Shown here: positions 708-62,313 of the stretch, piece after piece
Position numbering within the stretch: the first letter of the stretch is position 1
Layout: every line of letters starts with the position of its first letter
The notes under the pieces: model-generated
What the model was told of the DNA's origin: nothing
Seen by the model: the letters and a program-made list of their open reading frames with translations, nothing else
Database searches by the model: none
Source: a virus
IMG/VR virus record: IMGVR_UViG_3300020392_000005
Strand: one strand, 5' to 3'
DNA length: 64,000 bases
Made by a program: the position numbers and the translations under genes

Positions 708-1769
708 TTATTTACCTTTTTTGTTTTTGTCAATAAAGTTCTGGTAGACTTTACTTGCTTGACCTAAATCCTTTTTCTTTTCAGGATCCTTTGCTCTTTG
801 ACTTGCTACTTTTGCTCTTTGTCCCATTGCAATTGCAGCCTGTATCTTATGAGCGTGTGTCTTGCCAGAATTTTTAATTTTGTTTACAGATTGAGTTGCT
901 TTTTGTTTATCTGTAAAACCTAAACCGTGAATTGTACCTTTAGGATTTTCATCTGTATACAAATCACTATGTTTATCTGACCCAGCTTTCTGACCTTTCT
1001 TTCTAGGTATTCTAGCGTCTGCTTCTCTCGCTACTACTTTTAGATTGTGGTCTTTCTTACTTTGGTCAATGCCGTGTCTAGCATCCTTTTGCGACATTAG
1101 TCCTACACTTCGCATAGTTCTATGTCTTCCTTTAGGTGGTGTATCTCCTAGACTGGCGATTGGGTGCATTGCACCATAACTGCCACCACCTAAACCAATA
1201 CTGCCTAATGGTCCAACACCACCAGCACCGTATTCTTTTAATTTTGCTTTTTCTAAAATCGTTTTCTTTCTAGGTTCTTCAACAAACTCAATTTCTGTTT
1301 TACCATAAGTTTTATTATCAACAATAACATCTAGTCTATCTAACTGGTCTAGTATAGACTTCATCATTGTAGAGTTTGTTTCTTTATTTTCTTTGACGGT
1401 TGTACTAAACTTTTTCATTATAAGTTGTCGTAAAGCTTTCTCAGCTTCATTTTCGTCTTTGTACTTTTTATGTGATTTAGATAATGGGTGCATTCCGTTA
1501 GGGTTCATATCTACACCGCCGTGTGCGACAGCATTTGCTGGGGCGTCTTCTTTGACTACCTTCCAACCCATTTGTAAATAAGTTCTTAATTCAGCATCCC
1601 AAACAAGTCTTTCTTTTCCGTTCTTTGAAATCTTAACTTTCTTTTCAGTTATGTTTTCTTCAGGTACGCAATTAGGCACTTGTTTATTGCCTTTCTTTTT
1701 CATACCTACTTGTTTGTAACCTGTCCAGCAGGCTTCCCATACATCTTTAAATGTTTTAATATCTCGCAT
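708..1769 (-). CDS. Modular, probable internal-head protein (CWxGY...VPNCVP module; KHSDLYTDENPKG module)
   Basis: N-terminal KTFKDVWE leader; short modules separated by x-x-E sites; modules recur in marine T4-like phages. Confidence 0.6.
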   Translation of the reverse strand: MRDIKTFKDVWEACWTGYKQVGMKKKGNKQVPNCVPEENITEKKVKISKNGKERLVWDAELRTYLQMGWKVVKEDAPANAVAHGGVDMNPNGMHPLSKSHKKYKDENEAEKALRQLIMKKFSTTVKENKETNSTMMKSILDQLDRLDVIVDNKTYGKTEIEFVEEPRKKTILEKAKLKEYGAGGVGPLGSIGLGGGSYGAMHPIASLGDTPPKGRHRTMRSVGLMSQKDARHGIDQSKKDHNLKVVAREADARIPRKKGQKAGSDKHSDLYTDENPKGTIHGLGFTDKQKATQSVNKIKNSGKTHAHKIQAAIAMGQRAKVASQRAKDPEKKKDLGQASKVYQNFIDKNKKGK

Positions 1770-2343
1770 TTAAATAATCTCCAGGTATTAATACCTCTCT
1801 ATTATCTGTCTCTAAAGTATATATGTCCATACCGAACGCTGTATTTGTTGGTTTTACTTCGTTCTCTACATCAAAAGGTGTGCCTGCAGGTAAAAACTCT
1901 TCACCATCAAATACACTTTCTTTTAATTGATACAGACCAGGTACTAAAGTTCTATTCTCAAAATACTCTTCGTTTAGTTCCTGTGTATACTTAAACTCGT
2001 CAACAGATTTTAAATACTTAACACAGGTACTCTCTAAATTGTTACCGTGTTCAGTATAGTAATCTTTATCTTCTTTTACTAATAGAGTTAAAGCAGTTGC
2101 AAAACTACCTATACGACCACCTAATCCTACTTTACTTAATATTCTTTTCAGATTGAATACAAATCTATGTAGCATTGTGTAGGCGTTCTTTTCTTTTGTA
2201 GTTTTCAAAGATAAAAATTTCTTTAATACTTTACCTTTCTCATCAATAATACCTAATTTAAAAGCAGGTTGCTTGTTAAAAGGTGTTACCAACATCTTCA
2301 CTACTCTATACGCTATCAATAAATCAATTGCTCTTGTTGCCAT
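1756..2343 (-). CDS. Conserved T4-like marine phage hypothetical protein
   Basis: YRVVKMLVTPF...AFKLGIIDEKG...FVFNLKR signature; overlaps neighbours. Confidence 0.7.
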   Translation of the reverse strand: MATRAIDLLIAYRVVKMLVTPFNKQPAFKLGIIDEKGKVLKKFLSLKTTKEKNAYTMLHRFVFNLKRILSKVGLGGRIGSFATALTLLVKEDKDYYTEHGNNLESTCVKYLKSVDEFKYTQELNEEYFENRTLVPGLYQLKESVFDGEEFLPAGTPFDVENEVKPTNTAFGMDIYTLETDNREVLIPGDYLNARY

Positions 2344-2705
2344 TATAGTTTCTCTAACTCTCTTTTTATTAACTCGTCTTCCGTTAAAGCGATTAACTCT
2401 TTCGGATACAAGTAATCCAAATATGTAAAAACAGACTTTAATATCGGCCAGTATTTTGTGTCATTTTTATATAACAACAATGTAATACAAGCGTCTATAC
2501 CAAATACATTTTGCAACACTACAATATGATTTACAACAAGTCTAATCTTTATAGAACCAGTTGTTTCATATTTTCTGAATAACCTTTTGAGATATTTAAA
2601 TCTCTTTATATCATCCCAAAATTCTTTTTCAGTTTCAAATGTCGGATTGTCGTAATGCTTTTGTGCATACAACAACCAATTATCTTTGGTTATCTGTTTG
2701 AACAT
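2343..2705 (-). CDS. Conserved T4-like hypothetical protein (NWLLYAQKHYDNP family)
   Basis: YA.KHYDNP...EF.DD.KRFKY.KRL...NH motif. Confidence 0.75.
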   Translation of the reverse strand: MFKQITKDNWLLYAQKHYDNPTFETEKEFWDDIKRFKYLKRLFRKYETTGSIKIRLVVNHIVVLQNVFGIDACITLLLYKNDTKYWPILKSVFTYLDYLYPKELIALTEDELIKRELEKL

Positions 2706-2710
2706 CTAAT

Positions 2711-3166
2711 TTACACTAATTTAGCGTAAACCTTTGATGAACCGTTAGACAATGTTTCAAACTTAACCTCTAATTTCAAGTTATCAATTCCAGGACCATT
2801 ATCTACTACCACATCTTCAGGTTTAGTTTCAGTTGTTTTACCATATGTACCACCGAATTGTTTTACTTCAGCAGTAACCGTACCAGCGTCACCTTCTAAT
2901 TTAACAGGACTAATATCTAATCCTATTCTCATTAGATTTTCTCTTAATTTGTCAACTGCGTATTGTGGTTTAATGTATTCCATATCGGCTACACTACCTA
3001 CAAAAGCATTAACTCTTTTAAGAACGCTTGGGTCTTTCAAATTTGCTGTTCCTAATGAACCATCTTCAACTGCATTACTTGTAGAAGTACCAGTTGTAGC
3101 GGCACCATATTTGATAGCATTTGATTTCACATTGCCTTCTTTTAAATGTTCTTTAAAAGTTTTCAT
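2711..3166 (-). CDS. Hypothetical protein with capsid-targeting-like leader MKTFKEHLKE
   Basis: ORF track; GGAG RBS; leader resembles T4 internal-protein CTS. Confidence 0.65.
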   Translation of the reverse strand: MKTFKEHLKEGNVKSNAIKYGAATTGTSTSNAVEDGSLGTANLKDPSVLKRVNAFVGSVADMEYIKPQYAVDKLRENLMRIGLDISPVKLEGDAGTVTAEVKQFGGTYGKTTETKPEDVVVDNGPGIDNLKLEVKFETLSNGSSKVYAKLV

Positions 3167-3175
3167 TTTTTTCTC

Positions 3176-3385
3176 CTACTTATATTTGTCCGACTTTACT
3201 TTAGAACCATCTGCTCTAGGTATCATACCTTTTGCTTTTAGATGAGCCTTATCTGTAAAGCCTGCCTTACCTGCTTTGTATCGCTTCATAGCGTCAGCAG
3301 TATTAGGCGCTTTCTCATTTACTAAATCTTCTTCAAAGTCTTTCAACTCTTCGTCTTCGTTAAACTTTGTGAACGACTTAACCAT
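3176..3385 (-). CDS. Small hypothetical protein with MVKSFTKFNE leader
   Basis: ORF track; coupled to neighbours. Confidence 0.6.
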   Translation of the reverse strand: MVKSFTKFNEDEELKDFEEDLVNEKAPNTADAMKRYKAGKAGFTDKAHLKAKGMIPRADGSKVKSDKYK

Positions 3386-3614
3386 CTTTTTTATCTTCTT
3401 TTTTAAGTTGTTGTTCAGCGCTTCTCAATGTCAAATCGCTTTCTTCTTTTCTCATCAACTTTTCAAGTATCTGTACTGCACCGTGAACGGCGTTTAAACT
3501 TGCTCTGGACTTTGCTAAGTCTTCTTCAAGTCTTTGTACGGATTCTTGTAGTTTTGTTCTTTCGCCAAGAAGTTGATTATATTCTTTCTCAACGACACCT
3601 ATACTTAAACTCAT
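3378..3614 (-). CDS. Small coiled-coil protein
   Basis: Heptad pattern; AGGAG RBS. Confidence 0.65.
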   Translation of the reverse strand: MSLSIGVVEKEYNQLLGERTKLQESVQRLEEDLAKSRASLNAVHGAVQILEKLMRKEESDLTLRSAEQQLKKEDKKDG

Positions 3615-3634
3615 TATGTTCTCCTAATTATAAA

Positions 3635-4084
3635 TTACGCAACTACAAAACCGTGTCCGCCTATTACATTCCATTTAGAATTTTTAAATAAACATACAAC
3701 GGTTTCACCTTCAGCATTAAGAGTGATAGTTGAACCACCTCTTAAATTTGTTGGTGTTATTGTTATCGCATTAGAAGCTGTTCCTGTTGCGATAATTACT
3801 TTTTGTTGTCCATCAGCACCATCTTGTAATGATAATGCAGCTACACCAGCACTTTGGTCAACTTCAGTTATTGCTGAAGATGTATCAATTGCTGTATCTG
3901 TATGTGTTAACGCTTCAGACGCTTGTTTCAAACCTACGAAAGTAGGAATGTTTTCAAAAACATCTTTTGCGGTAACTCTTTTATTGATTGGTGTATTTTG
4001 GACATCATCAACAATATGAAATAAATCTCCACTTGCTAATGATTTACCTAGGTCGTCTAGGGCTGTGATTTTTTTATCTGCCAT
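3635..4084 (-). CDS. Probable virion structural protein
   Basis: MADKKITALD start; T/A/G-rich beta character; late promoter at 4151. Confidence 0.55.
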   Translation of the reverse strand: MADKKITALDDLGKSLASGDLFHIVDDVQNTPINKRVTAKDVFENIPTFVGLKQASEALTHTDTAIDTSSAITEVDQSAGVAALSLQDGADGQQKVIIATGTASNAITITPTNLRGGSTITLNAEGETVVCLFKNSKWNVIGGHGFVVA

Positions 4085-4150
4085 TTTATTCTCCTATAAT
4101 TCCGAGTTAACGGTAAACTACTCATTGCATTATACAATGACCATATACAC

Positions 4151-4158
4151 TATTTATA
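4151..4158 (-). promoter_or_regulatory. T4-type late promoter TATAAATA
   Basis: Exact consensus, intergenic. Confidence 0.8.
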
Positions 4159-4163
4159 CAAAC

Positions 4164-4189
4164 AAAAAGGGGACCACAAAGGATCCCCT
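4164..4189 (-). terminator. Rho-independent terminator
   Basis: GGGGATC-CTTTGT-GGTCCCC-TTTTTG on the minus strand. Confidence 0.7.
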
Positions 4190-4215
4190 AATTATTATAT
4201 TTGAATTTTTACTTA

Positions 4216-4710
4216 TTAAGCGTCTGCAAATTCTGTATCGTCACCTTGGTCACCTGCGATAGATGACATAGCAACTAGTACTTCTGTCTGCACTCTTCCA
4301 CTTCTTCCACCAGAACCGGCTACTCTTCGTACCCAACCAGCGTGTGCTGTTTTTGTAGTACCAACACCTTGTTCAGTAGTGTCAACACCGAATACTTTTG
4401 TCGGGTCTCCTTGAGTACCAGATGAATTGGCACTTTCAGAAGTTGTTACCGATTTAGGTTTTTCGGATAAAGTGTATGCTGTAGCACTTCCTACTGCTGT
4501 TAATGTTGCACCAGGTACACCAGCAACAACCGTTGCTGAAGTATCACTAGCAATAGCAGTAATTAAGTAATCTTCGCTTGCAACTCTAATATAGTCTCCA
4601 ACAGCTGCTTGTGTTGTTAAAGCAGTTGAAGAACCAGTAACCGCACCAGCAGAGCTGATTGCTACCGTTCCTGAAGCTGTTTTAGAGTCCTTGTTTCCCC
4701 ACGCACTCAT
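4216..4710 (-). CDS. Probable virion structural protein (MSAWGNKD...HAGWV...EVLVAM family)
   Basis: S/T/A/G-rich; own late promoter and terminator. Confidence 0.6.
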   Translation of the reverse strand: MSAWGNKDSKTASGTVAISSAGAVTGSSTALTTQAAVGDYIRVASEDYLITAIASDTSATVVAGVPGATLTAVGSATAYTLSEKPKSVTTSESANSSGTQGDPTKVFGVDTTEQGVGTTKTAHAGWVRRVAGSGGRSGRVQTEVLVAMSSIAGDQGDDTEFADA

Positions 4711-4770
4711 AGTTGTTCTCCTATTTCTAAATTAATTTTTAAGCTTAAAGATTAATCTAATCTTCGTTAT

Positions 4771-4778
4771 TATTTATA
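4771..4778 (-). promoter_or_regulatory. T4-type late promoter TATAAATA
   Basis: Exact consensus upstream of 4216..4710. Confidence 0.8.
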
Positions 4779-4779
4779 A

Positions 4780-5364
4780 CTATTTGAAACCTAGTTTTTT
4801 GAGTTGGGATATAGTGTTGGAAGTAGAGGTGTGTAGTATTCCGATACCGCCTCTTGCTTTGAATTGTGATATGTTCTTTGAATAGTCGTCAATCAGTATA
4901 GTAGGCATACCTCCTACTTTAGCAAAGTTTTGTTTCTCTCTTCTTTTTACTAGATTAACTTTTGCACCAGACATACCTAATCTTGTTCTAGCCCATTTAC
5001 TTTTGCCAGGTATACAATTAGGGTCAGTAGTTTGTTCTACGAAAGCAGATAATATGTGTGGGTCATACTTATTAATAAATGACCATAGTCTTTGACCACC
5101 TGGATTCCAAGGTAGATTACTCCAGAAGTTAGGAGTATTCATAATTGGTTTCCACTTATCTCTTATTGTCTTAAATTTTGTTCTAGGTTCTTTTGCCCAT
5201 TGGGACATAGGCATACCAACTGCTCTTTCTGCAGCCTGTTCAAAATTACACAGGACTCCGTCCATATCACAATAAATTCTAGGTAGTTTTTTGTCAACGA
5301 GAGAATACTCGTTTAGGTTTTTTACCTGATAGATAACATCTTGTCTTAATTCTTTAAACTTCAT
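4780..5364 (-). CDS. HAD-family 5'(3')-deoxyribonucleotidase-like phosphatase
   Basis: IYCDMDGVL motif I, ILS motif II, GK, LIDD motif IV; start moved to 5364 behind AAGGAA RBS. Confidence 0.75.
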   Translation of the reverse strand: MKFKELRQDVIYQVKNLNEYSLVDKKLPRIYCDMDGVLCNFEQAAERAVGMPMSQWAKEPRTKFKTIRDKWKPIMNTPNFWSNLPWNPGGQRLWSFINKYDPHILSAFVEQTTDPNCIPGKSKWARTRLGMSGAKVNLVKRREKQNFAKVGGMPTILIDDYSKNISQFKARGGIGILHTSTSNTISQLKKLGFK

Positions 5365-5390
5365 AGTGTTTCCTTGTCTCATTATGCTTT

Positions 5391-5439
5391 ATTATTACAC
5401 ATTTTCTAGCAAAAGTCAAGCAAAAAATGAGCAATTTTT
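5391..5439 (-). promoter_or_regulatory. Sigma70-like promoter with upstream near-palindrome (copy 1)
   Basis: TTGACT-17-AATAAT; plus strand aaaaaatgagcaattttt at 5422-5439. Confidence 0.6.
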
Positions 5440-5744
5440 TACACTTGATAGTCTATTTTAGGGTTTACTTCTACCTTATCTGACTTTGTTTTGTTATCTG
5501 TTAATTTCTTTTCAGGTGCCTTTGATTTAATGTCTAAAGGGTCTTTCTCTACTGCATTTTTAGGTAGAACCGTATCACCAGAATGGTCTTCTTTCTTTGC
5601 TCTTAATTTTGCAAGGTCAGAACCATCTATTTTACCGTTCTTGTTAACATCTAATTTCTTTTGTTTAGGTGTTAACTTTTCATTTACTTTAGAGATTGCG
5701 TCTTCTAACGAACCTGGTTTAATATCTAAATATCTTTTTCCCAT
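5439..5744 (-). CDS. Small protein with EF-hand-like loop (DVNKNGKIDGSD), probable internal-head protein
   Basis: DxNxxGxIDxxD motif after a VNE site. Confidence 0.6.
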   Translation of the reverse strand: MGKRYLDIKPGSLEDAISKVNEKLTPKQKKLDVNKNGKIDGSDLAKLRAKKEDHSGDTVLPKNAVEKDPLDIKSKAPEKKLTDNKTKSDKVEVNPKIDYQV

Positions 5745-7903
5745 TATTTACTTCCTCTAACTTTCTTTGCTAAATCTTTATCTGCACCGCCCCAAGTACC
5801 ACTTGATTTGGTTACAAAAGAGTTTACTCTAGCAAGTGCCCATTGTTGTTGTGTAGCACCTGGTCTATGACCACCTTTCCACGCAGCCATTCCTCTATCA
5901 TAAACTTTCTTTAAAATAGAATACGGCATACCTGTCTTATCAGCTTTGTTTCTTACTGCTTTAATACTTTCATAAGTCATTTTAGCAGGATGATTTTTGT
6001 TTTCTACTTTCATTTTTTTCTTTACCATATTAGTTGCGGTACCGTATCTTACATCATCGCCTTTTTCTTTACCATATCTATCTCTAAATGATTTCTTTGG
6101 TAAGTCATCAGCAACTTTGTGTACCATTTTTATTTGTTTTTTAGATAGGTCAGCTTCAGTTTTAAGTGCCTTCTCTAAATCTTTTGCTTGTTTAGTATGT
6201 GCCTTAACTGCACCTTTCAATTGTTTGATAACATCTTTTACAGCAGGTTTATCTTTACTATCTAAATCTTCTTTCTTCATTTCTTTGTCTCTTAATAATT
6301 TGTTTGCGAGACCTATTGATAATGGTACCTCACCTGTATCTGGATTAGGTTCAGGTTTTACAGCTTTATTCTTTTCTATTTCTAATTTCTGTTTAAGTAA
6401 TGCGACTTGGTCTTTTAGAGCAGCGATACTCTCTTTAGATTTATCTTCTTTCTCTTTAGACTTATCTTCGTCTTTACCTTTTAACATATCTTTTAATTTC
6501 ATTTTTTCCTCTGGTTCTTGTTCTTGTTCAAACATACTACCAAATATTCTAGCGTATGGGTCTCTTGCATATAAGTGACCGCCGTGTGTATCAAATCTAG
6601 TTTTTAACTTATTCATAAAGTCTTTGTTGGTTACATTACCTCTTGCACCTTTGGCAGGAGCATTAACACCAGCAGGTTTAAATAAGTCACCTGTATTCTT
6701 ATCTATGAAAGCGTGTATACTTCTCTTCTGTCCGTTTTCTGTATCGTGTATCTTAATGTATTTAGGACCTACCGTTTTCATTAAATCTCTTTTTTGTTTT
6801 GCATAAAGACCTTTGAAACTAGGATGATTTTTAATCTTGTCTTGTCCTATCTTAATGTAATCATCAACGCCTTTCATTACGGCAGCGTTTTCTGCTACAT
6901 ATTCTTCTTTCTGCATAACTCTTACATCATCGCCAAACTTTGCGACAACTTGTTTGTGTATGTTCTCTATATCTTTTGCACTATCAACTCTTACTTCTGA
7001 ACCAGAAGCTGATAGTTCACCACCACCAATCTTACCTTTAAACATATTGGCAACTTGTTTTGCTTGTGATGAGTTCTTACACATATATTCAATGTATTCT
7101 GCATATTCTTTTAATTCGTTTTCTTCTCTAATTCTTACATAAAATCTATTGTTAAATGGTGATTGATAACCGTCTGCTTTAGCACCTTTGTTTGATTGCA
7201 TATAAGCACTAGCGGCATTTCTTGCCATTGTCATATTAGGATAAACCTTATCTAAAACTTTTGTACCATTTCTTAATTTCATAGTCTCTTCTTTAGTAGG
7301 TTTCATACCTTGTTTTTTTAATCTGTCTATGTCTGCTTCTGACGGAGCGTTCTCATTAGTTTCTGTATTATTATCTTTATAGTCGTCTGTCTTTTTCTTT
7401 TGAATACCTTTAGCGCCGTGGTCACTAGTATGTGTTTCTGTAATCTCTTCCCAAGATTTATTTTCAAAAGCAGATAACTTAACTCCTTTAGGTACTTGAA
7501 TACCTTTCTGTATCATACGACTAGCAGCCATCGCTGAAAGAAAAGGAATGTCTGCTTTGTAAAGTTTAGGTAGTTGTGAATTTGTAATTTTGTCAAAGAT
7601 GTTTCTTAATTGATTAGCTCTTGCAAGTGAAATTCTTGCACCTTTAAGTCCTGAATATTCTTTTTTAAGTTTCTGTATTTGTGCGTCTGTAAACTCCCAC
7701 AACATACTTTCAGGTAAGTCTTCCTCACCTAGTATTGACTTAACCGTAGACAACGGAAGTTTCATCTTCTTTGCTATCTCTTCAGGTGATGAACCACCTG
7801 CGAACATAGTGGCAATTGTTTTCATCTTACCTTCGTCTAGCTGTATATCGTTTGCCCAGACTTCAGCGATTGCTTCTGCCATTGTCTTTTTGTATCTTGT
7901 CAT
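5744..7903 (-). CDS. Large modular protein, C-terminal DUF5824-like domain; probable gp21-processed internal-head polyprotein
   Basis: C-terminal KVYDRGMAAWKGGHRPGATQQQWALARVNSF; many x-x-E boundaries. Confidence 0.6.
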   Translation of the reverse strand: MTRYKKTMAEAIAEVWANDIQLDEGKMKTIATMFAGGSSPEEIAKKMKLPLSTVKSILGEEDLPESMLWEFTDAQIQKLKKEYSGLKGARISLARANQLRNIFDKITNSQLPKLYKADIPFLSAMAASRMIQKGIQVPKGVKLSAFENKSWEEITETHTSDHGAKGIQKKKTDDYKDNNTETNENAPSEADIDRLKKQGMKPTKEETMKLRNGTKVLDKVYPNMTMARNAASAYMQSNKGAKADGYQSPFNNRFYVRIREENELKEYAEYIEYMCKNSSQAKQVANMFKGKIGGGELSASGSEVRVDSAKDIENIHKQVVAKFGDDVRVMQKEEYVAENAAVMKGVDDYIKIGQDKIKNHPSFKGLYAKQKRDLMKTVGPKYIKIHDTENGQKRSIHAFIDKNTGDLFKPAGVNAPAKGARGNVTNKDFMNKLKTRFDTHGGHLYARDPYARIFGSMFEQEQEPEEKMKLKDMLKGKDEDKSKEKEDKSKESIAALKDQVALLKQKLEIEKNKAVKPEPNPDTGEVPLSIGLANKLLRDKEMKKEDLDSKDKPAVKDVIKQLKGAVKAHTKQAKDLEKALKTEADLSKKQIKMVHKVADDLPKKSFRDRYGKEKGDDVRYGTATNMVKKKMKVENKNHPAKMTYESIKAVRNKADKTGMPYSILKKVYDRGMAAWKGGHRPGATQQQWALARVNSFVTKSSGTWGGADKDLAKKVRGSK

Positions 7904-8199
7904 TTTTTTTCCTCGTATTCTTTAATGTCTATTATTAATCTACCTTCACCTTTGTGTAATCTATGATACACCATTTTAGGTATATAATACTCACTACCTA
8001 CTTTTAACTCTTCAGGCAACTGATTATCCATTTGAAGTTTCCAATTAACACCAGAGACAATCTTAATCTTTCTATCTAACTTGTCTCTATGCCAAATTAG
8101 TTCTTTGTCTTCAATGTCATTATTGAAAACTCTCTGGTGTATACCATTTGTTTTAAAATCAGTATACGGTTTACCAAAAGAAGTTTCCACCATTGCCAA
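7900..8199 (-). CDS. Small cupin-like conserved phage protein
   Basis: ELIWHRD...WKLQMDN..P...IPK..YHR..KG pattern; start uncertain. Confidence 0.6.
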   Translation of the reverse strand: MAMVETSFGKPYTDFKTNGIHQRVFNNDIEDKELIWHRDKLDRKIKIVSGVNWKLQMDNQLPEELKVGSEYYIPKMVYHRLHKGEGRLIIDIKEYEEKK

Positions 8200-48501: not shown

Positions 48502-48502
48502 T

Positions 48503-50232: not shown

Positions 50233-50238
50233 CCGATA

Positions 50239-51303: not shown

Positions 51304-51362
51304 AATGCCTCCTGTCCTTTCAGACATTAATTGCAAAGATAACTCGTTTATCTTATTAATAT

Positions 51363-51393: not shown

Positions 51394-51430
51394 GCTTTTG
51401 ACACATATAAGAAAATCTGAATATTCTAAT

Positions 51431-51745: not shown

Positions 51746-51766
51746 AGGTATATTTATGGGAAGGCC

Positions 51767-51798
51767 AAAAAAAAGGCGACCCGAAAGTCGCCTTTTTT
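51767..51798 (-). terminator. Rho-independent terminator after gene 23
   Basis: GGCGAC-TTTCGG-GTCGCC-T8. Confidence 0.9.
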
Positions 51799-51819
51799 CG
51801 TTTTCAGTATAAACTGATA

Positions 51820-53157: not shown

Positions 53158-53180
53158 ATCTTTTTCCTCTCTCCTATTAA

Positions 53181-54371: not shown

Positions 54372-54420
54372 TTGAAGTTCTCCTTAATTTAAAAAAATAA
54401 TTATTTTTTTCGTTATAATA

Positions 54421-54428
54421 TATTTATA
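54421..54428 (-). promoter_or_regulatory. Late promoter TATAAATA for genes 22-23
   Basis: Exact consensus. Confidence 0.85.
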
Positions 54429-54452
54429 AAATTGCGTTCTTTTGTACGCAAA

Positions 54453-55100: not shown

Positions 55101-55124
55101 ATGAATTATCCCTCTCTTTCCTAA

Positions 55125-55132
55125 TATTTATA
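55125..55132 (-). promoter_or_regulatory. Late promoter TATAAATA for gene 21
   Basis: Exact consensus. Confidence 0.85.
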
Positions 55133-55139
55133 ATATTTT

Positions 55140-55535
55140 TTATCTAAATTCAACAACTAAAGTATAGTTATCGCCTAACGCAAAGTTTTTAGTTGATAGA
55201 TGTACTTTTCCGTTAGGTGTTGTTGCATTATTAGGAATATCGTTACCAGCAGTTCTAAAATCTAGGTATCCGTTACCACTTAATAAAAGTGTAGTAGTGT
55301 TCTCCGTTGCACCTCCCCAGGCTAACTCAACTGCTGATTTTGAGTTTGCAACATTTATAGAGTACCAGACTTTTGATATTGATTTAGTACCATCAGCGGT
55401 CATAAAATTTGAAGTCGCTGGGTCTACTAATACACTATCAGTTTCGCCTGTACCATCACTATGGTTTGTTCTCTTTACAACAAATTTAACACCTGCTGTA
55501 TCGGCTACTACCTGCGTTGTAATTGCGTCTGCCAT
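55140..55535 (-). CDS. Hypothetical head-cluster protein
   Basis: ORF track; resembles adjacent 55535..55882. Confidence 0.6.
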   Translation of the reverse strand: MADAITTQVVADTAGVKFVVKRTNHSDGTGETDSVLVDPATSNFMTADGTKSISKVWYSINVANSKSAVELAWGGATENTTTLLLSGNGYLDFRTAGNDIPNNATTPNGKVHLSTKNFALGDNYTLVVEFR

Positions 55536-55882
55536 TATCCTGGATACCTCTCCGTTTCTTTATGCAGTTCTACTGCCATATTAAATTTACTTACATTAGC
55601 ATCCGTAGTAATTTTTAACTCGGTTGCTGTATTAAGTTCTTGTTGAGGTACTAATCTGGCCTCGCCATTTTTTAAACCCCAATTACCAAAACCTGTAAGT
55701 TCTAATGTATCACTTCCTATTGTTAGAGTAGCAGTTCCTGTTCCTCTAATCTCATAATATACATTAGCTAGTGAAACGCTTTTATCGGAACTATACAAAG
55801 TTCCACTTTCGTTATCAGCGCCACTAGCATTAACAATTGCTTTAGTAGCGTCATCTGTTTTAGAGACAACACTTAAAGTCAT
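55535..55882 (-). CDS. Hypothetical head-cluster protein
   Basis: ORF track. Confidence 0.6.
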   Translation of the reverse strand: MTLSVVSKTDDATKAIVNASGADNESGTLYSSDKSVSLANVYYEIRGTGTATLTIGSDTLELTGFGNWGLKNGEARLVPQQELNTATELKITTDANVSKFNMAVELHKETERYPG

Positions 55883-55884
55883 TT

Positions 55885-56121
55885 TTATTCCTCAAAGTAT
55901 GCTTTAATGTCGTCAGCAGATATACCACTTGCAGCTGCAACTTCATCAACTTTAGTTTCAATTATGCTTACTAAATCTTGTGGTTCTGACCAATCAATAC
56001 CATCTAGTCCTTCAATCAATCCTTTGATAGCGTCTTTTGTTGCAGGCGCCAAAGCATTGTATCTGTCGTTTCCTAGAAATCCTGATACATTACCAACTAT
56101 ACTTGATACCGTTAATGCCAT
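55885..56121 (-). CDS. Small acidic head-cluster protein
   Basis: ORF track; GGAG RBS. Confidence 0.6.
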   Translation of the reverse strand: MALTVSSIVGNVSGFLGNDRYNALAPATKDAIKGLIEGLDGIDWSEPQDLVSIIETKVDEVAAASGISADDIKAYFEE

Positions 56122-56123
56122 TT

Positions 56124-56480
56124 TTATTCTCCTGTTTTAACTTCTGTTTCTGTACTTGTTTCAGGATTATGTGCAGCTTGCACTTCGTCCTGTGTAGCTT
56201 GTGCCGTAAACGGTTCCGCAACTTCTGGTTTTGGATCCGAGTGAGGTTGTGCTGTATCTACTGCTACTTCAGTTGCACCATCAGACGGAGTTCCAGTCAT
56301 AACATCTCTAGCGGCATTGAAAAGATTACTTGCATATTCTTTTCTACCTGTATCTAAAGCGTCACCAACTTTATCTCTCATTGCGTCTTTAAATGCTTCA
56401 CCAGCACCTGTATTATCTCCACTTGCAAGTTTATCAACAAATGTTTCTACATTACTTGGTTGTTTTTCATTATCAGCCAT
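56124..56480 (-). CDS. Probable prohead core protein (gp67-like position)
   Basis: Acidic; A...FKDAM..KV..ALD; directly after gene 20. Confidence 0.55.
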   Translation of the reverse strand: MADNEKQPSNVETFVDKLASGDNTGAGEAFKDAMRDKVGDALDTGRKEYASNLFNAARDVMTGTPSDGATEVAVDTAQPHSDPKPEVAEPFTAQATQDEVQAAHNPETSTETEVKTGE

Positions 56481-56490
56481 ATTATTTCTC

Positions 56491-58017
56491 CTATATTATT
56501 TCGTCTGGTTCATTGCCTGACACACTAGTTTGTGGACTTGCAATAATACCATCATCAATTTCTCTTTTGATTTCGTTATCAATGTCAGATATTTCTCTTT
56601 CAGATTGTTTCAATATGTTTTTTCTAACATAGTTGACTGAAAAATATTTACCAACATAGTCTCTTACATCATTAGCAAGAGCAATTCTTTCTCTTAATAA
56701 CTCAGCGTTTTTAAGTTCGCTGAAATGACCATCGGCAAGAAAATCATATTTGATTTTCTCTTTCATATCTATCCAATCGTCATCATTGATTATTGATTTA
56801 AGAACCAATTGAGTTCTTAATAAATCATTAAACAATTCTGTAAATTTCTTTCTTAATCTTTGTACAAACTTTGTAAATTTAAGTTCGTCTCTAGTTATCT
56901 CGGTACTTCTACCTAGATTGAAACCTTGACTACTTTCTAATCTACTAATAGGTACATTTAGAGAACGATATAGTTTTCTTTGGAAGTATTCTATATCTGC
57001 AACTTCACCTAGGTTTTGACCACCAGGTAATGTAGATATATCAGTTCCTCTACCACCTTCTCTACTAGGTAACCAAAAGTCTTCAAGCATAGACATATAG
57101 TTTCTATCGTCTCTAATCTCTCCTGTACTTGCGTCATAGACAAGTTTGTTTCTGTATCTTGCCATAACATCACGGAGATATTGCTCTGCTTTTACTTTAG
57201 GTAAGTTACCTACATCAATCTTAAATATTCTTCTTTCAGGTGCTCTTGCAATTCTGTAAATAACAACAGCGTCTTCAATCATACGCAATTGATTTACAGG
57301 TTTGATTGCCTTATGTAAATAAGACATAACCATATTTTTGTTCAAGTCTACTAAACCACTTGGACAAAAAGATATAGCGTCTGGTGCAATCTTAATACCA
57401 CCACTTGCCATACCAGGTCCTGCAACACCTTTTTCATTGTATAAAAAGTATTCGTTATAGTCGTGTACCACTTGTATGTTTGCCATAGCAACTGGACGAC
57501 CTTTTTTAATTTCTCTTAACTTCTTAATCTTTCTAGGGTCTATGTATCGTAATTCAGTAATACCCTTAACTGGACTTTCTCTATCAATAATCTTATGATA
57601 GTATATTCTTCCGTCTACATACCATCTACGAAAGATATCGTGTCCTCTTGTAGAAAAATTAAGTAGTCTTAATATTTCTTTAAATTCATCTTCAATTTTT
57701 CGTTTAATTGCACTTGAAAGTGTTGTATCAGATAAGTCAACTCTAACTGGATCCTTATCAATTTCATTTGCCACTATGGCTTCGTTTACGATATCCTCTA
57801 TGGCCATATCGCACTCTGGATGAATTGATACCTCTCTATATCTCCTAATTAAGTCTTGCTCAGTTTTCGCCGTACCTTCCATATCAAGGTACTGACCAAA
57901 ATAACCTCCAGCGGCGACGGTTTGTGTACCGTCATCCGCTTTAGGTTGAGTAAAACTTTGTTTAGGGTCTACTTTAGGTTTAGTTCTAGTTATCTGAAAA
58001 CCGAAAAGCTCTGCCAT
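56491..58017 (-). CDS. 20: Portal protein (T4 gp20)
   Basis: WYVDGR, YRIARAPERR.F.IDVGNLP, EDFWLP.REGGRGT. Confidence 0.97.
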   Translation of the reverse strand: MAELFGFQITRTKPKVDPKQSFTQPKADDGTQTVAAGGYFGQYLDMEGTAKTEQDLIRRYREVSIHPECDMAIEDIVNEAIVANEIDKDPVRVDLSDTTLSSAIKRKIEDEFKEILRLLNFSTRGHDIFRRWYVDGRIYYHKIIDRESPVKGITELRYIDPRKIKKLREIKKGRPVAMANIQVVHDYNEYFLYNEKGVAGPGMASGGIKIAPDAISFCPSGLVDLNKNMVMSYLHKAIKPVNQLRMIEDAVVIYRIARAPERRIFKIDVGNLPKVKAEQYLRDVMARYRNKLVYDASTGEIRDDRNYMSMLEDFWLPSREGGRGTDISTLPGGQNLGEVADIEYFQRKLYRSLNVPISRLESSQGFNLGRSTEITRDELKFTKFVQRLRKKFTELFNDLLRTQLVLKSIINDDDWIDMKEKIKYDFLADGHFSELKNAELLRERIALANDVRDYVGKYFSVNYVRKNILKQSEREISDIDNEIKREIDDGIIASPQTSVSGNEPDEII

Positions 58018-58056
58018 TTTATATCCTCAAAGTTTTATTATATATTTAGTCTACTA

Positions 58057-58584
58057 TTAAGTAGTTGTTCTTGCTTCAAAGAACAAGTATCTAAACGATA
58101 CTTCAAAAGTTTCAACTGCTTCTGTCGGTTCCATAGACAAGTCTATCGCACCAATAGATACTGGAAAGCATCCTCTTAATGTGTAAGACTTAATCGTGCC
58201 ACCATTTCTGTCAAGGTGGTCAATAAAAGCGTCAACTTGATAGTCTGCTGGATTTACTAATCCTTCGTTATCAGACATATTGTTGATACCATTTTGCCAT
58301 CTTTCAAAAGCGTCTCTTAATTTAAAGTTTGTATCGTTAAGTACCGTTATGTTCCAAGGTTCAAAAGTTCTATCAGCTGCAAGATATATTGGTCTACCAC
58401 GGAAGTTAACCGTTGTTGTACCGATACTCATAGCAGGAATAGAAGTTGCATTACATAAGAACGCTAACTCTTCTGTTTCTCCACCAACTTGGGCGTAACC
58501 AGGAAAAGGCATTGTAACCTTAAACTGATTGGCTCTTGCGCCGCCGCCAGTAAGTTTAGTTTTGAAGTCATTAATGTTTGCCAT
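58057..58584 (-). CDS. 19: Tail tube protein (T4 gp19)
   Basis: GGAR.NQF, FRGR....DRTF..W..TV.ND. Confidence 0.93.
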   Translation of the reverse strand: MANINDFKTKLTGGGARANQFKVTMPFPGYAQVGGETEELAFLCNATSIPAMSIGTTTVNFRGRPIYLAADRTFEPWNITVLNDTNFKLRDAFERWQNGINNMSDNEGLVNPADYQVDAFIDHLDRNGGTIKSYTLRGCFPVSIGAIDLSMEPTEAVETFEVSFRYLFFEARTTT

Positions 58585-58605
58585 TGTTTATTTTCCTCTC
58601 TACTA

Positions 58606-60540
58606 TTAACCTGCTATCTCTTCAAAAGAGACACCAGTTCTGGTTGCAACGAAAGATAAAGTGATAAAGTTGATACTTCTTGCTGGTTTTACAAAAATCT
58701 CAGCAATAAATTCGTTTCTATCAATTACTTCGCCTGTGTTGTTTGTTTCATCACACACTACTAAAAAGTCTGTGATACCTCGTCTACCTTGTACTTCTCT
58801 TAGGAAAGGTTCTACTAGGTTTCTAAAGTTCGCTCTTGTAAACTCGTCATTAAATTCAAAGAGTTGGAATTTAGAAGCTGTCGCAATCGCCTTTTCTAAA
58901 ACGATAAACAATCTTCTTACATTTATTCTATCAAACGCAGAAGGTTTTGCCAATCCAGTTTTGTCTCCGAAAAGAACAATACCTTGACCTGGGAATGAAA
59001 CAACTGGGTTTATTCTCGCTCTGTATAGTTCGTCTCTTTGAGTTTTATTTGGATTGTAAGCAAGTTTACTAGCACCTCTAATAATACCTCTGTTTAATCC
59101 TGCAGGACTAAACCAAGCGTCATTAGTTAAATCAGTTCTAGCAGCCAAGCCAGCCATATCTCCGTTTAGCGGAACATATCTGAATACATCATTGTATCTG
59201 TCGTACATATATTTGTAACCACTATCAAATATTACATATGAAGATGATTGTATTGCATTGAAGAAAGCAAGTACATTGTTTGTTTGATTGATAGCTGATG
59301 TAATACCTACTACATCGCTTCTTTGTGGACTTGCAAATACAACAGCGTCTTTTCTTGTTTCAGCGATTGTAATTAAATCACCGATTAAAGTTGCTGAAGC
59401 GTTACCAGCCATTATCAAACTAACATCTACGGATTCACTATCTTGGAATAATTCAAACGCAGACTTTCTAACACCGTCAGTTGCCGTACCATCATCACCA
59501 CCTGCGAAAGATAATGCGATAGGAGCGGTAACATCTGTAAATGTTTTACCTGCTTTTGCGTCTCCCCAATTTGTTCCGTTAGAGTTGTGGTCTCCCCAAT
59601 AAATCATACCAGATTTTCTGTATATGACTTCTGGATAGAAGTTGTTATTTCCACTTGCGTCTTTAGCGTCTTTAGCTTTTGAAACACCTTCAAAAACTTC
59701 TAACACTTCGCCTTTTGTTCCGTTTATAGTACCATCGGCGTCTACTACGATAATGTGCATTTCGTCATTAGAACCACCAGCAGCAGATACATCTGGAGAA
59801 GTTCCTGGAGCACCAGACACTTGGTCATAGTACTTCCATCTTCTTCTTACATTTGCACCGTTTGTGATAACTCTACTTAATCCGCCAGTACCAACACTTT
59901 TCTTTAATGTGATATCGTTAGAAGAAACTTGCGTTACCTCGTACTCAACACCATCATCATAGTCGTTAGTTCCTGCAGAAGTTGAAAAAGCGATAATATC
60001 GCCTACACCTATATTAGTTCCACTTGTAACCGTAATTGTAGTGTCACCCACAGAAACAGCACTATCGTTAACGGTTGTTACCGCAACGGCTTCATATGCT
60101 GTAGCTGAAGGACAAACAGAAACTTCTAAACTATTTCCGTATGCACCAGCAAATCTTGCTACAAATTCTACGCCAGAGATACCAGTATACGCACCACTAG
60201 CTAAATAACTAGTGTTATAATCATTTGTATTTCTCACCAATAAAGCTGTACCAGAGTTGGTAACAGCGTTCTTAATACCTGTATTTTCAGTTCGTACAAC
60301 TTTTAAGGCGTTTGAGTATTGCAGAAAAGATGAAGCAGTAAAATACTCTTCAAAATTATCTGTTGTCGGTTTACCAAACAAACTTACTAGGTCTTGTTCA
60401 TTAGAGATTAATGTAATCTCTCCAACTGGTCCTCTTTTAGCACTAAAAGCGTATGCGCCAATGCTAGTAGAAACAGCAGGAACTATGTTAGTAAGGTCCT
60501 TTTCTTGTACGAGAACCCCAGGTGATACTTGAAATGCCAT
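58606..60540 (-). CDS. 18: Tail sheath protein (T4 gp18)
   Basis: SPGV...E.DLT, WFSPAG..RG, FDRINVRRLF, KPARSINFI. Confidence 0.97.
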   Translation of the reverse strand: MAFQVSPGVLVQEKDLTNIVPAVSTSIGAYAFSAKRGPVGEITLISNEQDLVSLFGKPTTDNFEEYFTASSFLQYSNALKVVRTENTGIKNAVTNSGTALLVRNTNDYNTSYLASGAYTGISGVEFVARFAGAYGNSLEVSVCPSATAYEAVAVTTVNDSAVSVGDTTITVTSGTNIGVGDIIAFSTSAGTNDYDDGVEYEVTQVSSNDITLKKSVGTGGLSRVITNGANVRRRWKYYDQVSGAPGTSPDVSAAGGSNDEMHIIVVDADGTINGTKGEVLEVFEGVSKAKDAKDASGNNNFYPEVIYRKSGMIYWGDHNSNGTNWGDAKAGKTFTDVTAPIALSFAGGDDGTATDGVRKSAFELFQDSESVDVSLIMAGNASATLIGDLITIAETRKDAVVFASPQRSDVVGITSAINQTNNVLAFFNAIQSSSYVIFDSGYKYMYDRYNDVFRYVPLNGDMAGLAARTDLTNDAWFSPAGLNRGIIRGASKLAYNPNKTQRDELYRARINPVVSFPGQGIVLFGDKTGLAKPSAFDRINVRRLFIVLEKAIATASKFQLFEFNDEFTRANFRNLVEPFLREVQGRRGITDFLVVCDETNNTGEVIDRNEFIAEIFVKPARSINFITLSFVATRTGVSFEEIAG

Positions 60541-60651
60541 TAGGTTTCTCCTCTATTTGTTATTTGTATTTAAATTTAAATACATAATGTTTCCTTTTAG
60601 TTCAAAATTCGTATTATTCATACGCCCATTGCAAATTTTCTCAATCAATAC

Positions 60652-60659
60652 TATTTATT
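60652..60659 (-). promoter_or_regulatory. Late promoter variant AATAAATA for gene 18
   Basis: One mismatch to consensus; intergenic. Confidence 0.65.
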
Positions 60660-60675
60660 ATATGCCATTCCTACA

Positions 60676-62313
60676 CTAGTTACCTTTGCGTACAACAGGA
60701 TGCCAGACCGTTCCATACTCATCAACGGTGGGTTTTTCCTCTTCAGGAGTGCCATCATCTACGAATCCAAAAGGTGCCATATCCTGCTCTATGAGTTTTT
60801 CCTGTTCTCTATACATTTCTGCTCGTATATTTCTATCGGTCATTTCTTTAAAGTATCTTTGATTGACTAACCAACCGAATATTACGAGACAGGTCATAAG
60901 GTCATCATTACAACCTTCTTCTGCTTGCCAAGATTGATTTTTTCTGACAAAGGTTGACATTTCTTCTATAATTTTAAAATCATTGATAACAAGTTTATCT
61001 GCTTCAATGATTGCTTTGATATTTGCAGTTCCCATTTTCTTAATCTGTTTAGTCATACGAACACCTAGTTGTGAACCTCTTTGACTAAACATTGCACCTA
61101 GTATCTGACCTGCTCTACCTTTTTGAGTAGTCATTAATATATTATCATACTCTATCTCAAAGTGTAGACCATCAGATATCTGAGCGCCAATATCATTTAC
61201 TTCAACAAGTATATGTGCCTTGTTATATTGACTACATACTTTCGCAATCATTTCAGGAAACAATATTGGTTTTAATTCATTATCTCTAAATGTTGCAACT
61301 ACTCTATAAGGTAGTTGGGTTACATCATAGATTATAAACGCTGAATAATCTTTTAATGTACCACGAGCAACATCAACACAAGCAACATAAGTGTTACCTT
61401 TTATTGGTTTCTCAAAGATACTTAATCGTCCATTTGTTTGTAATGGTGTTATATACGGTGTCGCTTTAATCTTCGCAGGACTGATTAATGTATCTACTGA
61501 ACCTAAAAACTCACACTCAAATTCACTTGCGAATTGAGTAGCACTTGTATTTCTTATTGTTTCTTCTTTCCACTTTTCGTCTCTACCTGGTACTTCTGAC
61601 CAATGTACTTCCATAGGTACATAGTCATTGTTTTTATTTTCAGCGTCTACCCATAGTTTGTAAAACTGGTTCATACCATAAGGAGTAGAAACGATAATAA
61701 CTTTTGTTTTCTGACCTGAAGTAATCGTAGGATAAACAGACGAGAAAAACTGCTCAGCGATTGTAGTAGGTACGAAAGCAAACTCATCTAAAAATATTAT
61801 GTTGTATGAACCTCCTCGTATCGCACTTGAAGAAGTTGCGGCTGCAACAATTTTAGATTTGTTTTCTAATTCTATATTACCTTTGTTCCAGTTGATTACA
61901 CCTTGTTGTAACCATTTAGGTAAGTTCTCATATGCAAGTTGTAGTCTACCTAGTATATCTCTAGCAGTTGAAGACTTGTTGGCAAGTATCGCTATGTTAG
62001 AGTTAGGATTAAATATTGCATAATGTAATAAGTAAGATATGATAGTTGTAGACTTACCACTTTGTCTAGGCAACTTGTAAATAGTAAATCTATTTTTGTG
62101 CATATTAGTAATCATCTTGTCCTGAAACTTATATGTCTTAAATGGTATAAGTCCTTCGTCAAGTGAAACTATCTGTACATAGTTCTTAATAAAATATAAA
62201 GGGTCTTCTTCACACCTTTTAAATTCTACAATCTGCTCTTCTGTAAATTCAATAGGTGTATTGACTTTCTTTAAATTAGGATTACCTAGATATGCGTCTG
62301 AAAAATTATTCAT
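60676..62313 (-). CDS. 17: Terminase large subunit (T4 gp17)
   Basis: YLGNPNLK, PRQSGKST, LDEFAF, STP.G, DVARG, DDL. Confidence 0.97.
   Translation of the reverse strand: MNNFSDAYLGNPNLKKVNTPIEFTEEQIVEFKRCEEDPLYFIKNYVQIVSLDEGLIPFKTYKFQDKMITNMHKNRFTIYKLPRQSGKSTTIISYLLHYAIFNPNSNIAILANKSSTARDILGRLQLAYENLPKWLQQGVINWNKGNIELENKSKIVAAATSSSAIRGGSYNIIFLDEFAFVPTTIAEQFFSSVYPTITSGQKTKVIIVSTPYGMNQFYKLWVDAENKNNDYVPMEVHWSEVPGRDEKWKEETIRNTSATQFASEFECEFLGSVDTLISPAKIKATPYITPLQTNGRLSIFEKPIKGNTYVACVDVARGTLKDYSAFIIYDVTQLPYRVVATFRDNELKPILFPEMIAKVCSQYNKAHILVEVNDIGAQISDGLHFEIEYDNILMTTQKGRAGQILGAMFSQRGSQLGVRMTKQIKKMGTANIKAIIEADKLVINDFKIIEEMSTFVRKNQSWQAEEGCNDDLMTCLVIFGWLVNQRYFKEMTDRNIRAEMYREQEKLIEQDMAPFGFVDDGTPEEEKPTVDEYGTVWHPVVRKGN

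Follow-up and report, generated by a model that had tools for sequence, protein, structure and literature searches.

Flank-dependent loss of restriction-type words from a pelagimyophage-type genome fragment: a possible footprint of short-motif DNA modification

Introduction

Phages are known to lose restriction sites by counter-selection of palindromes and of restriction–modification (R-M) targets, as exemplified by the loss of GATC from staphylococcal phage K. Here we describe a conditional form of such avoidance in a 64,000-nucleotide stretch of viral DNA (IMG/VR record IMGVR_UViG_3300020392_000005; this whole stretch is referred to as the window), where some 15 short restriction-type words have been purged and several of them persist only beside particular flanking bases. 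Some pelagiphages are depleted in GANTC (PMC9516812). As in other cases of avoidance by phages, words of type II, IIS and III character have been removed from the window synonymously, and the avoided set varies among close relatives; unlike in those cases, the purge is total for several 4-mers (0 of 100 or more expected) and conditional on a single flanking base.

Protection of restriction sites by overlap is an equally familiar effect: a methyltransferase of another specificity can block a restriction site, as at Dam/Dcm overlaps, and M.BamHI generates GGATm4CC (m4C, N4-methylcytosine). The pattern in the window is similar in that a mark at one word would block an overlapping word, and the m4C placed by M.BamHI in GGATCC falls on the C of GATC. 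It differs in that the sparing word is only three nucleotides long (TCC after any base, as in GANTCC) and serves at least four sites, and in being an evolutionary footprint, whereas overlap protection is a bench effect. Short-motif viral methyltransferases include M.CviPI (GpC) and M.CviPII (CCD) of chloroviruses; to our knowledge, no phage methyltransferase specific for TCC or CCA has been described. Taken singly, none of these elements is new, be it the avoidance of sites, their protection by overlapping methylation or viral methyltransferases of short motifs.

Two further systems bear on the candidate writers of a putative mark. In phages T4 and RB69, the C-terminal tails of gp43, gp55 and gp33 bind the sliding clamp; a similar tail is found in the window on SPPY1, here a protein of methyltransferase fold and a putative clamp binder. 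Mom of phage Mu acts in the context S-A-S-N-Y, which does not match the GGA, CCA or AGC of the window. Both Mom and DruA/DUF4338 are GNAT-fold DNA modifiers (PMC13219725; PMC10853773). They resemble the present case in making context-specific non-methyl marks against many restriction enzymes, in the presence of GNAT genes in homologous slots of the relatives HTVC008M and Mosig, and in the GNAT-like open reading frame (ORF) that precedes SPPY1. Phage modules of C5-methyltransferase (C5-MT) and TET enzymes act at GpC[C/T], or in one clade GpC[C/T/G], but not at GpCA (Burke et al. 2021, PMC8256090). This specificity equals the footprint of the window, in which GCT spares sites and GCA does not, and viral writers of 2–3-nt motifs have precedent; the local candidates differ in carrying SPPY motifs of the amino-methyltransferase type. 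Marine Myoviridae-like genomes encode several methyltransferases, mostly of predicted m4C type, and bear several m4C motifs each (Hiraoka et al. 2022, PMC8919816). The motifs reported there (RGCY, CCWGG, GGWCC) differ from TCC, CCA and GCT, and no link to conditional avoidance was drawn. Our literature searches turned up no account of flank-conditional avoidance in pelagimyophages.

Results

Short restriction-type words are purged from the window

Expected counts were derived from synonymous-codon shuffles in which each protein and the overall codon usage were kept, a conservative test because codon usage has already been shaped by the purge. Comparison of k-mer counts with these shuffles defined one window-wide feature:

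1..64000, purge of about 15 restriction-type words: ACGT, CATG, TCGA, CGCG, GATC, GANTC, CTNAG, ACWGT, CASTG, GCATC, GAATG, CAGAG, GAATTC, TCTAGA and ATGCAT

Among 4-mers, observed and expected counts were 11/142 for GATC, 0/106 for ACGT, 0/112 for CATG, 0/113 for TCGA and 0/16.5 for CGCG. The 5-bp words (N and W/S positions included) gave 26/131 for GANTC, 14/92 for GCATC, 25/156 for CTNAG, 0/87 for ACWGT, 0/44 for CASTG, 28/80 for CAGAG and 24/92 for GAATG, and three 6-mers were missing altogether (GAATTC, 0/16; TCTAGA, 0/21; ATGCAT, 0/18). CCGG and AGCT were partially depleted (72/194 for AGCT), while counts of CTAG, GTAC, TGCA and TTAA matched expectation. All changes involved in the purge are synonymous and the ORFs of the window are intact; the purge acts through selection on synonymous sites.

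The initial annotation of this DNA had described CATG, TCGA and ACWGT as scarce; each is in fact absent, as are ACGT, CGCG and CASTG, which it had missed. It had also called ACSGT and CACG common, in agreement with counts of 91 for ACSGT and 105 for CACG/CGTG.

The trinucleotides most depleted at codon junctions, relative to the shuffles, were GGA/TCC (ratio 0.77, z = −16) and AGC/GCT (ratio 0.76, z = −14). Depletion on the coding strand affects GGA as well as TCC, meaning that both strands are concerned, and this prominence suggests that GGA/TCC and AGC/GCT are recognised words. Most of the AGC/GCT deficit reflects avoidance of AGCT. Avoidance of Shine–Dalgarno sequences was considered as the source of GGA depletion and ruled out, since coding-strand TCC is depleted too.

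Separately, two asymmetric words that we could match to no enzyme are rare. TCAAGA/TCTTGA is nearly gone from the window (1 observed, 29–42 expected) and from HTVC008M (0 observed, ~100 expected), and CATCTC is likewise depleted.

Surviving sites obey a flank rule

The few surviving copies of GATC, GCATC and GANTC, as located by k-mer counting, are the following:

784..789, GGATCC, spared GATC
4181..4186, GGATCC, spared GATC
20010..20015, GGATCC, spared GATC within the SPPY1 gene
21397..21402, GGATCC, spared GATC within orf160
21418..21423, GGATCC, spared GATC within orf160
41339..41344, GGATCC, spared GATC
47399..47404, GGATCC, spared GATC
52753..52758, AGATCC, the sole GATC with a one-sided sparing flank
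52955..52960, GGATCC, spared GATC
56233..56238, GGATCC, spared GATC
57749..57754, GGATCC, spared GATC
GCATCC, starting at 1081, 1594, 24361, 26269, 31549, 40304, 42489, 49112, 53018, 55599 and 58168
GGATGC, starting at 13576, 37310 and 60698 (the 14 GCATCC/GGATGC copies together span 1081..60704)
GANTC, first 13 of 26, starting at 3541, 4685, 5103, 5254, 8434, 9965, 15127, 15509, 15649, 18241, 25032, 25668 and 27749
GANTC, remaining 13, starting at 31480, 34404, 35106, 46113, 47007, 52355, 52375, 52631, 52697, 53335, 53884, 59432 and 60763 (the set spans 3541..60767)

For each site we compared observed counts with shuffle expectations in a 4 × 4 table of 5′ and 3′ flanking bases. GATC between a 5′ G and a 3′ C was found 10 times where 5.1 were expected, and once between G and T, with 0 observed against ~130 expected in the remaining classes; pooling every flank class other than GGATCC gave 1 observed for 137 expected. 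GANTC survived when followed by C (19/19.1) or preceded by G (12/18.5) and never with neither flank (0/97). GCATC survived when followed by C (14/12.7; others 0/79), and 11 of these 14 copies also have a 5′ A (AGCATCC). For GAATG, the tolerated flanks were a preceding G (14/18) and a following G (14/20), the others giving 0/57; for CAGAG, a preceding C (21/15.2) and a following C (10/11.3), with 1/~55 in the remainder. CTNAG preceded by G or followed by C was counted at 21/~46, and between two W bases, or between W and G, at 0/~83. Spared classes are thus near their expected frequency and non-spared classes have been eliminated, while ACGT, TCGA and CATG have no exceptions in any flank.

Across these tables, the trinucleotides at the site boundary that spare are TCC/GGA, CCA/TGG and GCT/AGC, and those that do not are TCA, TCG, TCT, GCA and CCT. 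TCC/GGA spares GATC, GANTC, GCATC and GAATG; CCA/TGG spares CAGAG and GAATG; GCT/AGC spares CTNAG and CAGAG and, more weakly, GCGC. Sparing by GCT and not by GCA recurs in four site types (CTNAG, CAGAG, GCATC and GCGC).

The central claim of the initial annotation, that sites survive only where they overlap GGA/TCC, is therefore exact for GATC, GANTC and GCATC and accounts for half of the GAATG survivors, but is too narrow, because CCA/TGG and GCT/AGC spare as well. Its proposal that GATC is rare and almost always GGATCC is borne out by the exact count (10 GGATCC and the AGATCC at 52753); nine of its GGATCC positions were correct and the last lies at 57749, not 57689. GCATC/GATGC does occur only as GCATCC/GGATGC, in 14 copies and not the six it listed, and all GANTC copies are GGANTC or GANTCC, 26 and not six. 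The flank-split, codon-preserving comparison for which it had called places non-spared GATC, GANTC and GCATC far below expectation.

The same rule is legible in the choice of aspartate codons. In Asp-Pro pairs, Asp is written GAT in 9/9 cases after a preceding G and GAC in 34/34 cases otherwise (Fisher p = 2e−9). For Asp-Ala, noted earlier as mostly GAC-GC, the split is GAT in 8/8 after a preceding G and GAC in 70/70 otherwise (p = 4e−11). Before C followed by a base other than C, Asp is GAC in 72/72. All 9/9 coding GGATCC sites are read in the frame xxG GAT CCx, because they encode Asp-Pro.

Three simpler accounts of the rule were discarded. Coding necessity or a frame effect was ruled out, as every site could be avoided synonymously and the common frame of GGATCC is that of Asp-Pro. 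A single dinucleotide rule, with a mark at all CC/GG and GC steps, was ruled out since CGCG and GCATC contain GC and yet are purged; it is also contradicted by the failure of CCT, of GCA and of a G preceding GCATC to spare. A fourth context base (TCCW or TCCA) was ruled out, there being no departure from the background at the position 3′ of TCC, even though HTVC008M and clade C contain few GATCCC.

The rule is a lineage trait shared with cultured relatives

Pelagibacter phage Mosig has replication and head/tail modules with which the window is collinear, the proteins being ~28–83% identical (mostly 40–83%), including 67% for the polymerase, 83% for the major capsid protein and 67% for the sliding clamp. 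The window has a GC content of 33.7%, and every substantial ORF lies on its minus strand. It encodes a peptide deformylase and an Asp/Asn hydroxylase, which are typical of pelagimyophages (PMC7029224). The window belongs to a marine T4-like phage of the pelagimyophage type. Relatives were grouped by locus and polymerase: clade A comprises IMG/VR contigs with 81% or more polymerase identity to the window, clade B those at ~70% identity (loci L030–L042, L048, L049, L052, L057 and L074), and clade C the loci L100–L137; HTVC008M is represented by L162 and L175–L180. For Mosig and HTVC008M, expected GATC counts were calculated from base composition.

Both phages cultured on SAR11 strain HTCC1062 show the rule. 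Mosig has 19 GATC for 422 expected, 19/19 of them GGATCC, and no ACGT or CGCG. HTVC008M has 83 for 441 expected, each flanked by G on the 5′ side or C on the 3′ side; its GASTC copies are GAGTCC/GGACTC in 15/15 cases, 14/23 of its GCATC are GCATCC, and its surviving GGCC are mostly TGGCC/GGCCA. Clade A contigs reproduce the pattern of the window. In clade C, all GATC with one sparing flank are kept and 1 in ~300 GATC is unflanked (in L102). OM43 phage Melnitz avoids GATC (23 observed, ~450 expected), but the flanks of its survivors are random, and clade B avoids GCATC and, partly, GANTC without the TCC exception. The flank rule is a lineage trait and not a property of GATC avoidance itself. 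Nor is it a sequencing artefact, given its recurrence in independent isolates and in over 100 metagenomic contigs. The avoided set differs among relatives: clade A avoids CATG and ACWGT and Mosig does not, HTVC008M lacks TCGA and Mosig is partly depleted in it, and AGCT is absent from some clade A contigs.

An 8-bp palindrome, AGGATCCT, recurs in HTVC008M, where GGATCC occurs 28 times for ~12 expected by composition; C after GATCC is seen in 0/111 cases where ~10 were expected, a hint that the context extends in a CCD-like manner. In clade B the effect of the flank runs the other way, with GANTC half depleted and GGANTC/GANTCC depleted about tenfold (10 observed, ~95 expected), despite an SPPY1 ortholog.

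The available Mosig record has to be read with a probable gap in mind. In HTVC008M, Melnitz and the window, the polymerase gene is followed by UvsX, gp41 helicase and DUF6267; all three are missing from MT647606, which begins inside an MT-A70 gene fragment (L001 1-232; L003 41033-41461). The "complete genome" is probably missing at least 10 kb at the junction after the polymerase gene. No SPPY gene is present in this record, itself probably incomplete at that point; the Mosig-like contigs L046 and L082 carry both SPPY1 and SPPY2.

Candidate writers include SPPY1, encoded near the polymerase gene

The genes of the window that bear on a possible writer are listed below, all on the minus strand unless given as intervals:

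19766..21019, minus strand, SPPY1, 417 aa, amino-methyltransferase-like, candidate co-replicative DNA modifier; GxG at about residue 212, TSPPY at 280–284, tail ending ATLESFL
19769..19789, minus strand, codons of the SPPY1 C-terminal tail (ATLESFL), which resembles polymerase ASLESFFV and gp55 ANLEDFL, a T4-type clamp-binding epitope
20979..21461, minus strand, orf160, small GNAT-fold protein, malonyl-CoA decarboxylase-like; overlaps the SPPY1 start, directly downstream of the DNA polymerase gene
21614..24109, minus strand, gp43-type DNA polymerase ending in ASLESFFV, taken as reference for the clamp-binding tails (tail codons 21617-21640)
28059..28724, minus strand, gp45-type sliding clamp, presumed docking partner of the tails, 67% identical to the Mosig clamp
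35346..36494, minus strand, SPPY2, 382 aa, SPPY1 paralog (24% identity); contains TSPPYF but lacks a clamp-type tail
37581..38273, minus strand, beta-class N6_N4 DNA methyltransferase homolog, 230 aa; Pfam E = 1.5e−18, motif IV TSLPD
45829..46398, minus strand, gp55-type late sigma factor with tail ANLEDFL (tail codons 45832-45852)
19766-21613, swap site for DNA-modification genes between the polymerase gene and uvsX (counterparts: L084 4010-6194; L162 24535-25659; L174; L167)
35346-42267, island between the CobT-like and peptide deformylase genes, absent from Mosig, HTVC008M and Melnitz

SPPY1 and SPPY2 both carry TSPPYF, preceded ~70 residues upstream by GxG motifs (SCGWGDR and SMGYGGR), and these elements are invariant in the alignment. 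Weak matches to PHROG families annotated "DNA methyltransferase" were obtained, and an Atlas cluster named automatically as cytosine-N4 methyltransferase is a lead only. An AlphaFold2 model of SPPY1 (pLDDT, the model's per-residue confidence score, 82.6) adopts a class I methyltransferase fold and matches many class I methyltransferases in structure searches with Foldseek and VIA (Z up to 13.3), which returned nothing beyond generic members of that class.

Three proteins of the window end in a clamp-type tail, namely SPPY1 (ATLESFL), the polymerase (ASLESFFV) and gp55 (ANLEDFL). About 40 distinct SPPY1 orthologs keep the pattern [A/G]TL[E/D]xF[F/L/I] beside polymerases ending in ASLExFF. By analogy with T4, SPPY1 probably rides the clamp on replicating DNA, and such a placement would suit a motif found roughly once per 76 bp.

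In relatives, the interval after the polymerase gene is a slot for modification genes. It holds orf160 and SPPY1 in the window, C5-MT and TET in Melnitz, a DruA/DUF4338 GNAT gene in HTVC008M, MT-A70 in Mosig, MT-A70 and SPPY1 in G001, and N6_N4 and SPPY1 in G004. HTVC008M has two DruA-family GNAT genes (PF14236), the first immediately following the polymerase gene and the second next to the CobT-like gene, in the slots of SPPY1 and SPPY2; Mosig has one such gene, and in both phages a DruA/DUF4338 protein occupies the place of SPPY2. DUF4338 is a GNAT domain (PMC10853773). No homology was detected by hhalign between SPPY and DruA-like proteins or between orf160 and DruA, and the GNAT type of orf160 (malonyl-CoA decarboxylase-like) is distinct from Mom and DruA.

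Other routes to modified DNA were searched for in the same genomes. None of 7-deazaguanine enzymes (TGT/DpdA), TET/JBP, C5-MT, D12 Dam or Mom was found in the rule-obeying relatives. C5-MT (PF00145) and TET/JBP (PF12851) had no match in HTVC008M, Mosig, G001, G004 or the Pfam-scanned ORFs of the window, and Melnitz has both; neither Mom (PF25680) nor DruA (PF14236) was present among the scanned ORFs of the window, PF25680 being found in Melnitz only. The genes that the window has in common with HTVC008M and Mosig and that are absent from Melnitz are a redoxin, CobS-like, CobT-like and one head protein, with no obvious writer among them.

The beta-class N6_N4 homolog has TSLPD in place of (D/S)PPY at motif IV, and its closest solved relative is the DpnA-like M1.HpyAVI of H. 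pylori; it may be inactive, atypical or repurposed. The island around it holds SPPY2, this methyltransferase homolog, DUF4385, several ORFs of no assigned family, a pyridoxal phosphate-dependent (threonine-dehydratase-like) enzyme and an Asp/Arg hydroxylase-like protein.

Elsewhere in the window lies one further group of genes:

4780-14851, cluster of an NT5C-like nucleotidase, a 980-aa protein with PAP2, Pol-beta nucleotidyltransferase and cytidylyltransferase domains, a zeta/PNK-like kinase, MazG, an adenylate-kinase-like protein and DUF6267

We had considered this cluster as a DNA-hypermodification pathway and dropped the idea, as RNA repair or nucleotide rescue fits at least equally well.

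Discussion

The best-supported reading of the flank rule, to which we assign a probability of roughly 0.5, is that covalent marks at short words in the virion DNA shield overlapping restriction sites. Two or three very short words in the virion DNA would be marked. The simplest carrier would be the cytosine of T-C-C, C-C-A and G-C-T, with the paired G or A as the alternative, and a mark on the terminal base of an overlapping site would block the nuclease. Protection of GATC would require both strands to be marked in the clade of the window (GGATCC), and that of GANTC only one. SPPY1, with its clamp-binding-type tail, could write so dense a motif during replication. Marks on terminal bases would explain why four unrelated sites share a final TC followed by C, why spared copies persist at full expectation and why the rule is specific to a lineage; such lineage specificity fits a shielding mark better than it fits chance, codon usage or quirks of enzymes. 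The purge, the flank rule, its distribution among lineages and the aspartate-codon switch are directly demonstrated; the existence of the modification, the base carrying it and the identity of its writer are what we infer from these patterns. Placing the mark on the middle cytosine (T-C-C, C-C-A, G-C-T) would put it inside the site in each well-supported case, and would also cover GCATC preceded by A, GCGC followed by T and GGCC followed by A. An adenine assignment (the A of GGA, CCA and AGC) performs nearly as well, and sequence cannot choose between the two.

A number of observations weigh against this reading. No one base assignment fits every case, with CCT and GCA failing to spare. AGCT has GCT on both strands and is still depleted, and CCA rescues neither CATG nor CASTG (CCATGG, 0 observed and 5 expected; CCASTG, 0 and 18). 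The case for a modification is built on sequence statistics. As for the writer, SPPY1 and SPPY2 score 21.2 and 17.4 bits against Pfam N6_N4 (PF01555), under the gathering cut-off of 26.7, and the solved amino-methyltransferase folds nearest to SPPY1 are RNA N2-methylguanine enzymes such as TrmN and Trm11; its tail and gene position argue for DNA as the substrate. HTVC008M obeys the rule although no SPPY, N6_N4, MT-A70, C5, D12, Mom, TGT or TET homolog was found in it, and clade B has SPPY1 (52–58% identity, tail intact) and yet no TCC rule. Finally, SAR11 is reported to be almost devoid of R-M systems and to show only GANTC/GAWTC methylation (PMC7029224, PMC9516812, PMC8919816).

Going by these distributions, SPPY genes are neither necessary nor sufficient for the TCC rule. 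The proposal of the initial annotation that the SPPY-type methyltransferases are candidate writers thus keeps the conserved clamp-type tail of SPPY1 in its favour and loses ground to HTVC008M, which has the rule without SPPY, and to clade B, which has SPPY1 without the rule. We regard SPPY1 as the best local candidate, with SPPY2 and the GNAT-like orf160 as further ones, and the assignment of SPPY1/2 as the writer as tentative, with the odds against it.

A shielding modification might instead be made by a non-classical writer, be it a DruA/DUF4338 GNAT protein, the GNAT-like orf160 or a conserved host enzyme. The two DruA-family GNATs of HTVC008M, in a genome with the rule and no recognisable DNA methyltransferase, the single DruA-family protein of Mosig, and the GNAT fold of both DUF4338 (PMC10853773) and orf160, whose gene overlaps the SPPY1 start, all point that way, and the common host of HTVC008M and Mosig (HTCC1062), set beside the lack of the rule in the OM43 phage Melnitz, would suit a host enzyme. 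We nonetheless consider this unlikely, given that no DruA homolog was found among the ORFs of the window or in four partial contigs of clades A, B and C, that orf160 occurs neither in HTVC008M nor in the clade C contig, and that two unrelated folds writing identical trinucleotide contexts would be surprising. Single-molecule real-time (SMRT) methylomes of SAR11, with only GANTC/GAWTC (PMC8919816, PMC9516812), argue against m4C or N6-methyladenine made by the host at TCC/GGA.

The DNA could also be unmodified, the flank dependence then being a property of the nucleases themselves, whose true recognition sequences might be, for example, HGATCD or GCATCD. Type II enzymes with degenerate flanking specificities do exist (GDGCHC, RGATCY), CATG, ACGT and TCGA are purged without any exception, and the stringency differs between lineages in a manner that could reflect different enzymes, since only GGATCC is tolerated in clade A and Mosig and one flank suffices in HTVC008M and clade C. 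At least four unrelated words (GATC, GANTC, GCATC, GAATG) would, however, each need an enzyme that excludes the identical flank, and the acceptance of GCT and not GCA would have to recur for CTNAG, CAGAG, GCATC and GCGC. Some of these words are avoided with no flank rule in Melnitz and clade B, and depletion of GGA/TCC on both strands is not predicted; we judge this account improbable. An artefact or by-product, arising from base-calling errors at methylated motifs, from codon or amino-acid constraints, or from shared ancestry of a few sites, is effectively refuted. The single frame of the coding GGATCC sites might have suggested it, and relatives are not statistically independent; that frame is simply Asp-Pro, a null that keeps proteins and codon usage still expects 142 GATC, the changes are all synonymous in intact ORFs, and the rule recurs in two isolates sequenced independently, HTVC008M and Mosig, as well as in over 100 IMG/VR contigs drawn from many samples.

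The source of the selecting nucleases has also to be accounted for. The avoided words resemble what we take to be the prototypes MboI, HinfI, SfaNI, DdeI, NlaIII, TaqI, MaeII, FnuDII, TspRI and StyLTI, presumably a diverse R-M repertoire. SAR11 is the host of the cultured relatives. The paradox is that phages of SAR11, reported to be nearly free of R-M systems, show one of the most complete purges of restriction sites known, which implies a nuclease pressure that has gone unrecognised, whether exerted by hosts or by rival phages. The natural hosts may differ from SAR11, SAR11 may carry nucleases not yet recognised, or rival phages may exert the pressure. A broader model would have pelagimyophage DNA bear trinucleotide-specific modifications (TCC/GGA, CCA/TGG, GCY) written during replication by clamp-docked or polymerase-adjacent enzymes, SPPY amino-methyltransferases in this clade and DruA-type GNAT acyltransferases in HTVC008M and Mosig being interchangeable in two slots, with the nucleases forming an unrecognised arsenal in SAR11 or competing phages. 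We offer it as an unlikely speculation.

Pelagimyophages are among the most abundant marine phages. If trinucleotide-specific marks are real, a globally dominant group of phages would carry a new kind of DNA modification, and the flank rule would provide a cheap, sequence-only predictor of modification motifs in uncultured phages. The cultured rule-obeying phages HTVC008M and Mosig make the proposed modification directly testable. If confirmed, a methyltransferase bearing the polymerase's type of clamp-binding tail would represent a new coupling of DNA marking to replication.

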